Shown piece after piece: positions 3,049-8,915 of a DNA stretch of 8,915 nt. The notes under the pieces are model-generated. The model searched no databases and was not told where the DNA came from. It saw nothing but the letters and a program-made list of their open reading frames with translations. The DNA lies in the IMG/VR virus record IMGVR_UViG_2778261203_000002. One strand, given 5' to 3'. Position numbers and translations under genes: made by a program. Origin of the DNA: a virus (Duplodnaviria > Heunggongvirae > Uroviricota > Caudoviricetes). How positions within the stretch are numbered: position 1 is the first letter of the stretch; every line of letters starts with the position of its first letter.

Positions 3049-3477
3049 ATGGGTTTTCGTAGCGCATCAATTCTTACGTTGATTATTAGTGGGATTATTA
3101 TCGGGTGCACTGATGCTGTATCGACAAATTATCATGACCGTACATCATATTACTCCGATAAAGCAATAGAGACACAGTATGTGAGTTCATCTGAACGTAC
3201 TTCTGATGTTAGTGAGGATATCCGTCTGTATGCCCATCAAATCAAGAGCGCCATCGAAAAACAGTTCGGGGATGCGAGTAAGTATTCAGGAAAAGAGTGT
3301 ACACTGAGAATGCATATGGCCCCGAATGGCCTTCTACTGGAGGTTAAAAGAGAAAGTGGAGACCTCGATTTATGTCGTGAAGCGATGAATGCGATAAAGA
3401 ATGCTGATATACCTGCCCCCCCTTCGCCGGAAGTATATAAAGTATTTCAAAATGGGGTGCTGGATTTTAAACCCTGA
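3049..3477 (+). CDS. Lipoprotein with C-terminal TolA domain III-like domain
   Basis: 142-aa ORF with a GAGGA RBS. N-terminus MGFRSASILTLIISGIIIGC has a hydrophobic core and a lipobox (IIGC, Cys20 at nt 3106-3108); Thr at +2 predicts outer-membrane sorting. The C-terminal ~85 residues (YAHQIKSAIEKQFGDASKYSGKECTLRMHMAPNGLLLEVKRESGDLDLCREAMNAIKNADIPAPPSPEVYKVFQNGVLDFKP) align along their whole length with my recollection of the E. coli TolA C-terminal domain, including the two Cys residues and the terminal LDFKP. Identity was not computed. Confidence 0.85.
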   Translation: MGFRSASILTLIISGIIIGCTDAVSTNYHDRTSYYSDKAIETQYVSSSERTSDVSEDIRLYAHQIKSAIEKQFGDASKYSGKECTLRMHMAPNGLLLEVKRESGDLDLCREAMNAIKNADIPAPPSPEVYKVFQNGVLDFKP

Positions 3478-3627: not shown

Positions 3628-4023
3628 GTGGGATTAAAGAAAATCGTTATGTTGACTTTTTGGGTCGGTTTTGTTGCGGGATGCACACCTTTACACCCTT
3701 CAGATTGCCACAAAACTACTGCTACAGGTAGTTGCAGTTCAGGACGCTGGGATGATCAGGATGAATGGGGGGCGCAAGCGCGGGGAATCAGAGCTGCAAT
3801 TAATGCCAAACTTGATGAGCCGCATAACTGGAAAGGGAAAAAATGCAGGTTGCATATGGAATTCTCTCAGGATGGCACGGCGTTAAAAATATCTACCAGT
3901 AACGGTGATAAAGCCTATTGCGAAGCGATAAAGTCCGCAGCTCATAAAGCCAAATTTCCGGCCTTCAACAATCCGGAAGTCTACAGAGATTTTCAGAAAT
4001 CTGGCTTTGACATGCGAGGTTAG
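3628..4023 (+). CDS. Lipoprotein, divergent paralogue of the upstream TolA-III-like lipoprotein
   Basis: 131-aa ORF starting at GTG 3628, with GAGGAG 6 nt upstream. Signal peptide MGLKKIVMLTFWVGFVAGC has lipobox VAGC (Cys19, nt 3682-3684) and Thr at +2. The C-terminal region (GKKCRLHMEFSQDGTALKISTSNGDKAYCEAIKSAAHKAKFPAFNNPEVYRDFQ) shares the K-x-C-x-L, D/NG, GD-x-x-x-C and PEVY-x-x-FQ pattern with the upstream paralogue and with TolA domain III. Confidence 0.8.
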   Translation: MGLKKIVMLTFWVGFVAGCTPLHPSDCHKTTATGSCSSGRWDDQDEWGAQARGIRAAINAKLDEPHNWKGKKCRLHMEFSQDGTALKISTSNGDKAYCEAIKSAAHKAKFPAFNNPEVYRDFQKSGFDMRG

Positions 4024-5448: not shown

Positions 5449-5585
5449 AATCTTAACTACAATATGATTCATTTTGATGATTGTTTCATAAGGAACAGTG
5501 AAGTAAGATCTAAGAGGAGTTAAATTTTATACAGTATAATCATAGTATTGCAGCAAGGTGGTTATAATTGAAAGAATATTTAGAT

Positions 5586-7043
5586 ATGAATACATCTCAT
5601 GTAAGAGTTGTTACTCATATGTGTGGGTTCCTGGTTTGGCTCTATAGTCTTTCAATGTTGCCACCAATGGTTGTAGCATTGTTTTATAAAGAAAAAAGCC
5701 TGTTTGTTTTCTTTATAACTTTCGTTATATTTTTTTGCATTGGTGGCGGAGCGTGGTATACAACTAAGAAATCTGGCATTCAATTACGTACCCGTGATGG
5801 GTTTATTATAATTGTAATGTTTTGGATTTTGTTTTCTGTTATTAGTGCATTCCCTTTATGGATTGACTCAGAACTTAATTTAACGTTCATTGATGCTCTG
5901 TTTGAAGGGGTTTCTGGAATAACAACAACAGGAGCAACTGTAATTGATGATGTTAGTTCATTACCTCGGGCATATTTGTACTATCGGTCACAGTTAAATT
6001 TTATAGGTGGTTTAGGAGTTATTGTTCTGGCGGTTGCTGTATTGCCATTATTGGGTATTGGTGGTGCAAAGCTTTATCAGTCAGAAATGCCGGGGCCATT
6101 TAAGGATGACAAACTCACTCCCCGCCTGGCCGATACGTCACGGACACTGTGGATAACTTATTCTTTATTAGGTATTGCTTGTATTGTCTGTTATAGACTT
6201 GCAGGAATGCCTTTGTTTGATGCTATTTGTCACGGGATTTCCACAGTTTCGCTTGGTGGTTTCTCAACTCATAGCGAGAGTATCGGATATTTTAATAACT
6301 ATTTGGTTGAGCTGGTGGCTGGTTCTTTTTCCCTGCTATCGGCTTTCAACTTCACTCTTTGGTATATTGTTATTAGCAGGAAAACGATAAAACCTTTAAT
6401 CAGAGATATTGAACTTCGTTTCTTTCTGTTAATAGCCTTAGGGGTGATCATTGTTACCTCTTTCCAGGTCTGGCATATAGGTATGTATGACTTGCATGGA
6501 AGTTTTATTCATTCGTTTTTTCTTGCCAGCTCCATGCTCACTGATAATGGTTTAGCTACGCAGGATTATGCAAGTTGGCCCACGCACACGATAGTGTTTT
6601 TGCTGTTGTCAAGTTTCTTTGGGGGATGTATAGGTTCAACTTGTGGTGGAATTAAGTCACTTCGATTTCTTATACTTTTCAAACAAAGCAAACACGAGAT
6701 AAATCAGCTTTCTCATCCCAGAGCGTTGTTGAGTGTAAATGTAGGAGGGAAGATAGTTACAGATCGTGTAATGAGGTCTGTATGGAGTTTCTTTTTTCTT
6801 TATACTCTCTTCACGGTGTTTTTTATACTGGTGTTAAATGGTATGGGATATGATTTTCTTACATCATTTGCAACAGTGGCTGCATGTATTAATAATATGG
6901 GATTAGGTTTTGGGGCTACTGCATCGTCATTCGGAGTGCTTAATGACATTGCAAAATGTTTAATGTGCATAGCTATGATTCTTGGTCGCCTTGAAATTTA
7001 TCCTGTTATTATATTGTTTTCAGGTTTTTTTTGGCGCTCCTAA
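5586..7043 (+). CDS. trkG: TrkH/TrkG-family potassium uptake membrane protein (Trk system)
   Basis: Multi-pass hydrophobic protein of about 485 aa from ATG 5586 (MNTSHVRVVTHMCGF...), with repeated Gly-rich selectivity-filter-like segments (GITTTGATV, GIGGAK, SLGGFST, GLGFGA) typical of TrkH/KtrB. The sequence and its position directly after Rz/Rz1 match E. coli trkG of the Rac prophage as I recall it. An alternative TTG start at 5568 has AGGTGG 6 nt upstream. The gene is visibly more AT-rich than the flanking phage genes. Confidence 0.9.
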   Translation: MNTSHVRVVTHMCGFLVWLYSLSMLPPMVVALFYKEKSLFVFFITFVIFFCIGGGAWYTTKKSGIQLRTRDGFIIIVMFWILFSVISAFPLWIDSELNLTFIDALFEGVSGITTTGATVIDDVSSLPRAYLYYRSQLNFIGGLGVIVLAVAVLPLLGIGGAKLYQSEMPGPFKDDKLTPRLADTSRTLWITYSLLGIACIVCYRLAGMPLFDAICHGISTVSLGGFSTHSESIGYFNNYLVELVAGSFSLLSAFNFTLWYIVISRKTIKPLIRDIELRFFLLIALGVIIVTSFQVWHIGMYDLHGSFIHSFFLASSMLTDNGLATQDYASWPTHTIVFLLLSSFFGGCIGSTCGGIKSLRFLILFKQSKHEINQLSHPRALLSVNVGGKIVTDRVMRSVWSFFFLYTLFTVFFILVLNGMGYDFLTSFATVAACINNMGLGFGATASSFGVLNDIAKCLMCIAMILGRLEIYPVIILFSGFFWRS

Positions 7044-7180: not shown

Positions 7181-7774
7181 ATGAGCGAGAAATTAAAGAT
7201 AGTCTATCGCCCATTACAAGAATTGTCACCGTATGCGCACAACGCCAGGACGCACAGTACTGAGCAGGTGGCACAACTGGTAGAAAGTATTAAGCAATTC
7301 GGCTGGACTAATCCGGTGCTGATTGACGAAAAGGGCGAAATTATTGCGGGTCACGGTCGTGTTATGGCGGCTGAAATGCTCAAAATGGATTCTGTTCCGG
7401 TCATTGTTCTGTCTGGCCTGACGGATGAGCAGAAAAAGGCGTACCGCCTGGCAGATAATCGCCTGCCGATGAATGCTGGCTGGGATGAAGATCTGTTGCG
7501 GATGGAGCTGTCGGACCTAATCAATGCTGATTTTGATGTCTCCCTGACAGGCTTCATCCCGACAGAAATTGATGAACTGTTGACGGATGTTTTGCCCGGT
7601 ATGATATTCAGATTGCTGGTTATGGGGTTGGCGATAAAAATCAGCAACGCCAGCAGGAATTACTGCGGATTGAACGTGAATATAACAATCAGCGTCTGCA
7701 ACTTGAACGTGACTATGCAGATAAATCCCGTGGGATGTCAAATCATGTTTTTCAGGAGAAAATGCAGGCTCTGA
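7181..7774 (+). CDS. ynaK: ParB-like nuclease-domain protein, probably 3'-disrupted at a deletion junction
   Basis: ATG 7181 with AAGG 4 nt upstream. The N-terminal ~140 aa look like a ParB/sulfiredoxin-type domain, including the GHGRVMAA motif (conserved Gly-x-x-Arg). From about nt 7600 the same DNA also encodes, in another frame, a tape-measure-like coiled coil, so the last ~58 codons of this ORF (LPGMIFRLLVMGLAIKISNASRNY...) are probably not native. The gene symbol is assigned by synteny with trkG in Rac, not by sequence recognition. Confidence 0.6.
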   Translation: MSEKLKIVYRPLQELSPYAHNARTHSTEQVAQLVESIKQFGWTNPVLIDEKGEIIAGHGRVMAAEMLKMDSVPVIVLSGLTDEQKKAYRLADNRLPMNAGWDEDLLRMELSDLINADFDVSLTGFIPTEIDELLTDVLPGMIFRLLVMGLAIKISNASRNYCGLNVNITISVCNLNVTMQINPVGCQIMFFRRKCRL

Positions 7775-8502
7775 ATGATGCTCTGGAACGAGAAAAAGAA
7801 ATTGTCAGACAGAAAAACGAGCAGCTCGATATTCAGGCAGGAGACTGGGTTAGTGGTGCCTCCCAGGGATTCAATAACTGGCTGGATGACACTAAGGATA
7901 TCAGTGAGCAGATAAAATCAACCACGACTCAGATGTTTGATGGAATGACCGATGCGCTGGGTGATTTTGTCACGACAGGCAAGGCAAATTTTCGTTCTTT
8001 CGCTACTTCCGTGATTTCGGATCTTAGTCGAATAGCATTAAAGGCTTCAATTACTGGGATTTTCGACAGCATTAGTAACAGTTCTTCTGGGGGGATTTTA
8101 GGAACTATCGGGAGTGCTATTAGTAAATTTATTCCGAATGCAAAGGGCGGTGTTTATGAGTCTCCGTCATTGAACACGTATTCGAACGGTATTTATGATT
8201 CCCCGCATTTTTTTGCTTTTGCAAGAGGGGCTGGTGTTTTTGGTGAGGCTGGTCCGGAAGCCATTATGCCATTAACACGAACTTCCGATGGTTCTCTTGG
8301 TGTCAGAGCTATTAATAGTAAAAGTGGTAATGGAGGCGGAGATATTACCTATGCCCCTGTATACCAAATCACTATTCAAAATGACGGCCAGAATGGAGAG
8401 ATTGGCCCTCAGGCAATAAAAGCACTTATGGGGATGGTTGATCAGCGGGTGCAGGGCGATCTGTTAAATATGCGACGTGATGGGGGAATGTTAAGTGGCT
8501 AA
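7576..8502 (+). pseudogene. Tail tape-measure protein (lambda gpH-like) C-terminal fragment, 5'-truncated
   Basis: This frame is open from 7576 with no start codon until 7735 and begins mid coiled-coil (DIQIAGYGVGDKNQQRQQELLRIEREYNNQRLQLERDYADKSRG...). It continues with a Gly/Ser-rich C-terminal region and ends directly overlapping a gpM-like gene, reproducing the lambda H-M adjacency. The upstream two-thirds of a tape-measure gene are absent. Confidence 0.65.
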
Positions 8503-8536
8503 TACGGAAGAATTTCACTGGTTACCAGAGGATGGA

Positions 8537-8803
8537 ATGAAAACAGAAAATAAACCATCAATAAAAACTGTAAGATTTGGCGATGGTTATGAGCAACGAA
8601 GTCCAAATGGACTTAATCATTCTCTGCGCGTTTTCACCTGTGATTTCAAAGTTGAGGCGAATGAACGTGATTCATTTGAAAAATTTTTAGCCCGGCATGA
8701 AGGCTATAAATCTTTTTTTTGGCGCCCGCCGGGTATTAACAGAAAAATCAGAGTGGTGTGTCGAACGTGGTCAGCGAGCCGGAGGCGTATACCCATAGTT
8801 TAA
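8537..8803 (+). CDS. Minor tail protein M-like (lambda gpM family), C-terminus possibly altered
   Basis: ATG 8537 with GAGGA upstream (a GTG at 8495 is an alternative start). MKTENKPSIKTVRFGDGYEQRSPNGLNHSLRVFTCDFKVEANERDSFEKFLARHEGYKSFFWRPPGINRKIRVVCRTWSA parallels lambda gpM from memory (VRFGDGY, FLEEHGGWKSFLWTPP, K-V-T-C-A-K-W-S). The last ~9 residues diverge at the point where a tail-fibre-like frame opens. Confidence 0.65.
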   Translation: MKTENKPSIKTVRFGDGYEQRSPNGLNHSLRVFTCDFKVEANERDSFEKFLARHEGYKSFFWRPPGINRKIRVVCRTWSASRRRIPIV

Positions 8804-8915
8804 GTGGCAGCACGAATGCAGCTGGTAATCACAGCCATAGAGATGGCCGTCGATTTAACCCCAGTGTTTTTAAAGATACTTATCAATATGGTTATACAAG
8901 CTCAGGTCAAAATAC
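8740..8915 (+). pseudogene. Tail-fibre-like fragment (His-box-containing), partial, runs off the window end
   Basis: Frame open from 8740 to the window end encodes ...SEPEAYTHSLSGSTNAAGNHSHRDGRRFNPSVFKDTYQYGYTSSGQN. The H-x-H and Gly/Ser/Thr-rich pattern recalls side-tail-fibre proteins. It has no start codon and abuts the gpM-like 3' end, so it is probably an internal fragment fused by deletion. Confidence 0.35.

Follow-up and report, generated by a model that had tools for sequence, protein, structure and literature searches.

The DNA analysed here, an 8,915-nucleotide stretch of the IMG/VR record IMGVR_UViG_2778261203_000002 (hereafter the window), carries lysis genes followed in order by trkG, a ynaK-derived frame (ynaK'), a 3' remnant of a tape-measure gene, a truncated homologue of the lambda tail tip gene M (here named M') and a 3' remnant of the tail fibre gene stfR. 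The features needed in the text are the following:

5568-7043: trkG
7181-7774, plus strand: ynaK-derived open reading frame (ORF)
7602-8502, plus strand: 3' remnant of the tape-measure (H-like) gene, called as an ORF at 7735-8502
8495-8803, plus strand: M', an ORF of 102 amino acids with a GTG start, homologue of gpM
8495-8777, plus strand: native part of M', codons 1-94 of a 112-codon M, 99.7% identical to intact M
8713-8720, plus strand: run of eight T (T8) within M', read in frame as AAA TCT TTT TTT TGG (K S F F W)
8758-8915, plus strand: mechanical ORF with a GTG start, made of wrong-frame M sequence, the K relic and the stfR remnant; 136 amino acids in contig L007
8776-8790, plus strand: relic of gene K (C40 peptidase, lambda K homologue), GAGCCGGAGGCGTAT, exact match to K nucleotides 124-138
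8777-8803, plus strand: foreign tail of M', by translation
8789-8915, plus strand: stfR 3' remnant in the frame of 8791, running off the window

The window was assigned by sequence to a cryptic E. coli prophage of the Rac family; over its whole length it corresponds to chromosomal DNA of the Rac locus. The upstream pair trkG-ynaK and the downstream series tfaR-pinR-ynaE-ynaM-uspF-ompN, which was reached through a 16.9-kb contig (L007, DAJHWZ010000066.1), are the neighbours of the annotated K-12 Rac by gene content, and the flanking and cargo genes characteristic of Rac (trkG and ynaK; tfaR, pinR, ynaE and ynaM; uspF and ompN) are all present in the window and L007. Annotated relatives show the same order of DUF1367, DUF1364 and DUF1133 genes, two ORFs with a TolA C-terminal domain, essD-rrrD-rzpD, trkG and ynaK. 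The main reference was L005, a near-complete Rac-like prophage of E. coli H1, in which trkG and ynaK are followed by two small genes, terminase, portal, a P22-type coat gene, tail genes and ydaY, then by an IS5-interrupted tape-measure gene, M, L, K, I, J, lom, stfR, tfaR and pinR, and at the right end by ynaE (ydfK in that record), ynaM, uspF and ompN. A second reference, L006, is deposited as 'Salmonella phage SPF_0923'. This record (ON032529.1, 'complete phage genome'; region of note 28143-35456) begins within the Rz gene, extends through tail genes into chromosomal sitDCBA, uspF, ompN and nifJ, and looks like a prophage plus flank, or a fragment packaged in situ, rather than a virion genome.

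Some features of the left part of the window were also recorded. A full-length Rfam match to the sRNA STnc100 (RF02076, 86.6 bits vs a gathering score of 47) was found on the plus strand at 2752-2938, between the DUF1133 gene and the TolA-like ORFs. The TolA C-terminal domain (PF06519) occurs in two prophage ORFs upstream of the lysis cassette (3049-3477 and 3628-4023, plus strand), which, speculatively, might interfere with Tol-dependent entry of phages or colicins. Bases 1-138 of the window match, in inverted orientation, IS421-adjacent DNA of strains LR-64-1 and Z217-2 (L002/L004 1671-1808). The two alignments have bases 102-138 in common, which points to a rearrangement of the window's left edge linked to an IS element.

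The tape-measure remnant matches Pfam Tape_meas_lam_C (E 4e-27), and the PHROG tape-measure families match it at their C-terminal ends. From the start of this remnant to the end of native M, the window is 99.7% identical to the reference prophage (7598-8777 vs L005 19899-21078). The start of M' overlaps the tape-measure stop by 8 nt, as it does in intact prophages; the position is that of lambda M, which lies directly after the tape-measure gene and overlaps it. The ORF at 7181-7774 (plus strand, 197 aa) is a fusion of YnaK residues 1-140 with 57 residues read out of frame from tape-measure DNA, and has been deposited as 'ParB/Srx family N-terminal domain-containing protein' (P0001, 22 contigs).

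That 8495-8803 is a gpM-like gene, as the initial annotation proposed, was confirmed by profile searches. M' matches Pfam PF05939 (Phage_min_tail) with E 7.2e-29 and 100.8 bits (cutoff 39) over model positions 1-92/108, and the minor tail protein family phrog_14 with E 7.5e-33; with lambda M it shares 44% identity over residues 4-91 (E 2e-29), up to CRTWSA in M' and CAKWSS in lambda M. A solved relative is the lambda tail tip protein M (PDB 8IYK). The full-length domain with its C-terminal strand(s) is lacking in M', whereas the intact M of H1 (112 aa) covers model positions 1-108/108. Where intact M continues with TEHITYTDFSCQFDEVVI, M' reads S-R-R-R, from the K relic out of frame, then I-P-I-V, from stfR out of frame, and ends at a TAA stop (8801-8803). 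The short divergent tail noticed initially is therefore a replacement of the last 18 residues of M by eight unrelated ones. A megablast search with 7700-8915 retrieved 708 complete E. coli genomes at >=80% coverage, and among the matches listed all stop at 8777. This breakpoint is not recurrent in M, since other damaged alleles break elsewhere, for example seven codons further on in Nissle 1917. The exact 102-aa product has been deposited at NCBI as 'phage tail protein [Escherichia coli]' (EFD0978320.1 and others, 29 contigs).

A second frame is open from 8740 (after TAA 8737-8739) to the end of the window and encodes ...SEPEAYTHSLSGSTNAAGNHSH... The His-box, tail-fibre-like character ascribed to it at the outset holds, with matches to the C-termini of K-12 StfR and lambda Stf. 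Read through contig L007, in which the stfR remnant spans 378 nt in total up to the tfaR start, the frame matches residues 1006-1120/1120 of K-12 StfR (E 2e-39) and residues 182-314/314 of lambda Stf orf-314 (E 5e-44); it also matches residues 131-242 of the T4 gp37 tip chain in PDB 2XGF (E 1.7e-23) and positions 700-794/794 of phrog_295. The remnant thus has the C-terminal His-box tip region of the Stf/T4 gp37 type, and the His-X-His repeat and terminal ...NAENTVKNIAFNYIVRLA of lambda Stf (orf-401/orf-314) and the T4 tip are conserved in it; relative to the T4 structure it is the equivalent of the distal half of the tip only. An N-terminal attachment domain and a shaft with its own start are absent. 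Identity to stfR begins at gene nucleotide ~3,020/3,399, leaving the last ~125 of ~1,120-1,130 codons, so that ~89% of the protein is gone, including the N-terminal domain (~1,000 residues). A tail fibre assembly gene comes after the remnant, as it does after lambda Stf. Similarity of this frame to lambda L, which would have pointed to an intact gene order, was sought and none was found (E 1.6); the frame is the extreme Stf C-terminus, and the deletion reading is not refuted.

Not all of the frame is tail fibre sequence. Bases 8740-8777 are M sequence in another frame, and the residues EPEAY are codons 42-46 of gene K. The frame was also described initially as having no start codon, but a mechanical GTG start exists at 8758. 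The ORF beginning there was reported by the ORF finder only, was called as a gene in 0/6 assemblies, and its exact 136-aa product is absent from a collection of 15 billion proteins; it is probably not a gene.

The break itself was located at 8777/8778, and not at 8740, by base-by-base comparison with intact M. At this point intact M reads ...GGTCAGCGA/CAGAACATATCACC..., the window reads ...GGTCAGCGA/GCCGGAGGCGTATACCCATAG..., and stfR of strain A21005-2 reads ...AATAACACCGG-GGCGCATACCCATAG...; the junction sequence in the window is GGTCAGCGAGCCGGAGGCGTATACCCATAG. The left flank is colinear with intact Rac-like prophages, at 99.7% identity, up to 8777 (after M codon 94). On the right, window 8779-8915 is 98.5% identical to stfR of A21005-2 (L003 6001-6136; 137 columns with one gap and one mismatch), 8789-8915 is identical to the same gene by direct reading, and a megablast search with 8650-8915 gave stfR matches whose first base is 8779 or 8785. 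Identity to stfR is reached at 8789-8791, and since stfR 3' ends are mosaic the right breakpoint can be placed no more precisely than 8784-8791.

The possibility that bases 8778-8788 had been mutated at the scar, with an orphan G, an insertion of 1 nt and a C>T change giving His>Tyr, was considered and was rejected when a 13-mer search identified them as a relic of gene K. The part unique to the relic is 8778-8788 (11 nt), while 8776-8777 (GA) is common to M and 8789-8790 (AT) is common to stfR. The relic GAGCCGGAGGCGTAT lies at L005 21961-21975, L001 30334-30348 and L006 18965-18979 (13-15-mer exact, same strand, inside the deleted interval), and the 13-mer GCCGGAGGCGTAT occurs once per intact reference, in gene K, in the loci fetched. 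It was seen at the junction in 6/6 contigs carrying the junction. The probability that a random 11-mer would match the 9.2-kb deleted interval is 0.002; when the 11-mers of window 8600-8915 were compared with this interval, the only same-strand matches were the five overlapping ones in the relic, and one unrelated 11-mer at 8722 matched on the opposite strand. The second joint (AT) falls inside an imperfect GGCG(T/C)AT match. By these comparisons the join is compound, reading as M (to 8777), a K relic of 11-15 nt, and stfR (from 8789-8791). It follows, as a caution, that apparent scar mutations at a junction can be the relic of a third segment.

Mapped on L005, the sequence missing from the window falls into two intervals:

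L005 21079-21962: 884 bp, with the last 56 nt of M, all of L and K nucleotides 1-125
L005 about 21976-30290: ~8.3 kb, with the rest of K, I, J, lom and ~3.0 kb of stfR

The total loss is ~9.2 kb in L005 coordinates, and ~8.9 kb relative to L006, whose stf is shorter. This mapping supports the deletion of L-K-I-J and the 5' part of a tail fibre gene proposed in the initial annotation, and adds two elements missing from it, the loss of lom and the retention of 15 nt of K. The lambda-type order H-M-L-K-I-J is broken, with truncated H and M present, L, I, J and lom absent, and K reduced to 15 nt. The junction lies far beyond chance expectation, each flank being 99-100% identical to a colinear part of near-intact prophages.

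Carriers of the junction were traced through the exact M' protein, since genome junction searches gave no match: megablast of the junction region found it in 0/5,426 complete E. coli RefSeq genomes, and a 30-mer across it was absent from the GTDB species representatives (one genome per species). The exact M' product was found in at least 57 blocks of an assembly index. Loci L008-L012 are at least 99.9% identical to the window where they overlap it. The two segments of contig L007 that match the window do so at 99.97-100% identity, with 100% over 7598-8915; this contig reads through the junction into tfaR, pinR, ynaE, ynaM, uspF and ompN, the canonical Rac right end, with tfaR and pinR intact. 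Three upstream structures accompany the one junction (window and L009-L012; L008; L007), and the junction is therefore inherited and not a local assembly error. The L007 segment 5396-10008, compared with window 7181-8502, has the same ynaK left end, but there this end is joined upstream of ydaY, so that ydaY and a further 3.3 kb of tape-measure sequence are retained. From this structure, the M-stfR junction predates the ynaK-to-H junction of the window or is independent of it.

An ancestor very probably carried a lambda-type tail module H-M-L-K-I-J-lom-stfR-tfaR-pinR, from which ~9.2 kb was then removed by illegitimate, homology-independent joining. No relevant microhomology of >=5 nt was found at the breakpoints, which share only the 2-nt overlaps GA and AT; the lack of microhomology above 2 nt and of a crossover core points to illegitimate joining. 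Complex junctions formed through microhomology with a short templated insertion are attributed to template switching of the MMBIR/FoSTeS type, and alternative end-joining occurs in E. coli. The junction resembles those of the MMBIR/FoSTeS type in the 2-nt overlaps at both joints and in the 11 nt copied or retained, in direct orientation, from between the breakpoints. It differs in that a two-step deletion would give the same sequence here. A single break-repair or replication event could have switched template twice, copying ~11 nt of K in between, and we tentatively propose that the M/K relic/stfR join is the footprint of one such event with two switches, or of break repair that inserted a short templated patch, an explanation that we hold with less than even confidence. 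If it is correct, the junction would be a natural, datable case of a complex microhomology-mediated rearrangement in the decay of an E. coli prophage, and, with the ynaK hot spot 1.2 kb upstream, it would suggest that the Rac family erodes by specific break and repair processes and not by random deletion.

In the alternative history two independent deletions would have followed one another, the first from M to K (884 bp) and the second from K to stfR (~8.3 kb). This remains a serious though somewhat less probable explanation. The relic is colinear and on the same strand, as successive deletions would leave it; many independent deletions of this module are found elsewhere (I to stfR in EC21Z-048, J to stfR in Z217-2 and ynaK to stfR in LR-64-1); and L007 indicates stepwise deletions elsewhere in this lineage. 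Against it, the expected intermediates were sought, namely an M-K-only allele in which K continues (it would read GGTCAGCGAGCCGGAGGCGTATTTCCGG / ...GGCGTATTTCCGGATG) and a K-stfR-only allele (it would read CTCCGGTGAGCCGGAGGCGTATACCCATAG), and neither was found in the 5,426 complete genomes, from which rare or slightly diverged ones would escape; the predicted M-K fusion product was likewise absent from the protein collection, where diverged forms would escape. The second deletion would also have had to begin <=15 nt from the first junction; unless junctions are fragile, such a coincidence is improbable. The single complex event is favoured over two deletions, on a tentative basis, because a second independent deletion starting so close to the first junction is unlikely a priori.

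An assembly artefact, in which the last 138 bases of the window would be a chimeric join at a contig end, is very improbable. Sequences of stf and tfa recur across the prophages of E. coli, the window runs for 138 bases beyond the junction, and support comes from draft assemblies only. Most of these stop 110-300 bases past the junction, as would be expected of assemblies interrupted by a repeat, and the junction is missing from all 5,426 complete genomes. But the identical junction (100%) is present in independent NCBI, ENA and Logan assemblies, the read-through of L007 to the canonical right end contradicts a chimera, and a chimera would not contain 15 nt of exact K sequence originating in the missing interval. 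With colinear flanks on one intact reference, independent assemblies and a read-through contig, the sequence data identify a genuine deletion junction.

Invertase sites lie inside the tail fibre genes of Mu, P1 and e14, and pinR is located directly downstream of tfaR in this prophage. It is nevertheless highly unlikely that the serine invertase PinR made a site-specific deletion by recombining a crossover site of stfR with a pseudo-site of M: cores of the AAACC-NN-GGTTT type (Hin/Gin/Pin) were absent, with one mismatch allowed, from the window, L007, L005, L003 and the K-12 locus, GA and AT are all that the M, K and stfR segments have in common, this model leaves the K relic unexplained, and invertases normally invert and do not delete.

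Hardly tenable at all is a truncation of M by polymerase slippage at the T8 run without any deletion: although public M variants are frameshifted exactly there (P0128, P0131, P0132 and P0136), in the window the frame is unchanged through the run, 19 more native codons follow it, its length is eight here as in intact M genes, and the sequence departs from intact M 57 nt further on, at the point where DNA identity ends. The eight T residues are exactly where they had been reported, but their reading as a slippage site is unsupported for the window; the run is eight long in 10/10 loci fetched, including the intact M genes of L001, L005 and L006. The window contains three T8 runs vs 1.8 expected, and 66/200 shuffles reach three, indicating no enrichment over chance. 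The frameshifts in the four public M clusters (...KSFF/GARRVL... or ...KSF/LAPAGY*, one of them on a 4.97-Mb contig) could be real slippage or homopolymer sequencing error.

The Rac prophage has been reported in 69% of 638 Escherichia/Shigella genomes, and the K-12 copy has been described as incomplete (PMC6379469). Rac of K-12 MG1655 (trkG-ynaK-ydaY-ynaA/tmpR-lomR-stfR-tfaR-pinR) belongs to the same prophage family and chromosomal locus as the window and is likewise eroded by internal deletions, most morphogenesis genes being gone in both. The two differ at every junction position. K-12 Rac has lost M entirely, joins a tape-measure fragment to lomR and retains a full-length stfR (1,120 aa), whereas the window variant keeps M codons 1-94 and the last ~125 stfR codons. 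Other junctions in the same module are found in each of K-12, EC21Z-048, LR-64-1, Z217-2 and PSJ-12. The deletion described here is one more Rac allele, known in kind, whose only new detail is the K relic, and by itself it has little weight, given that Rac degradation across E. coli strains is well documented.

Unlike lambda M, M' is without its partner genes L, I and J, and K is down to 15 nt. With the last 18 residues of M' also missing, it would be expected from established lambda tail biology that no tail tip can be built, and no function is expected for either M' or the stfR remnant. Very probably, ordinary decay of this Rac-family cryptic prophage has left a deletion scar that is fixed and without function. 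For annotation, M' (8495-8803) and the stfR remnant should be treated as pseudogene fragments, and EPEAY assigned to K. The junction 30-mer could be used as a lineage marker, being absent from the 5,426 complete genomes.

The other junction of the window, at 7598-7601, corresponds to ynaK nucleotides 418-421. Junctions at this position were found in the following loci:

window 7598-7601
L007 5813-5817
L002 10487-10490
L015 6044-6047
L016-L023

Comparison of these sequences identifies the site in ynaK (a ParB/Srx-N gene) as a nucleotide-precise deletion hot spot, where ...GATGTTTTGCCCGGTA is followed by 12 different partners in 12 loci. In a search with the YnaK' fusion, 40 of the best 120 clusters diverge from the intact 263-aa YnaK exactly after residue 140, 18 more after residues 141-143 and 10 after residues 165-167. 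The left end at nucleotide 421 (ending ...GCCCGGTA) has at least 29 distinct right partners, one of which is the junction of the reference locus of LR-64-1 itself, and the left end at nucleotide 496 (ending ...CCGGATA) has nine; four right sites are used with both left ends. The partners lie 0.4-27 kb downstream, in the next gene, terminase, coat, ydaY, tape measure, K, lom, stfR, tfaR and even sitB.

In the undeleted reference, TA precedes the partner in 25/28 informative cases for nucleotide 421, where ~1 in 16 would be expected, in 7/9 for nucleotide 496, and in the three locus-derived partners (L007, L002 and L015), amounting to ~85% overall. A weak dyad-symmetric GC preference was detected at positions 3-4 on each side of the TA; the preference can be written C-S-G-R-TA-Y-N-S-G. 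About 107 of the 1,099 complete genomes with this part of ynaK do not span the site. Neither a hairpin or unusual single-strand structure (z -0.22) nor significant repeats were found at the ynaK site, and no description of the hot spot was found in the literature. The vB_EcoS-xxxRx 'phage' records are partial prophage predictions and are uninformative on virion ends. Two candidate mechanisms can be proposed, a packaging-type (pac) cut of a phage with a P22-like head followed by end-anchored microhomology joining, and a recombinase- or nuclease-like crossover at the 2-nt TA. The ynaK junction is of more interest than the M-stfR junction and merits a separate study.

A module related to that of the window was also observed outside Rac. 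In E. coli PSJ-12 (L015 2721-8857), essD-rrrD-rzpD-trkG-ynaK' is located in the DLP12 locus (appY-ompT-envY), where ynaK' breaks off at the same site as in the window and a lom remnant follows; the presence of this module in that locus implies exchange between prophages.
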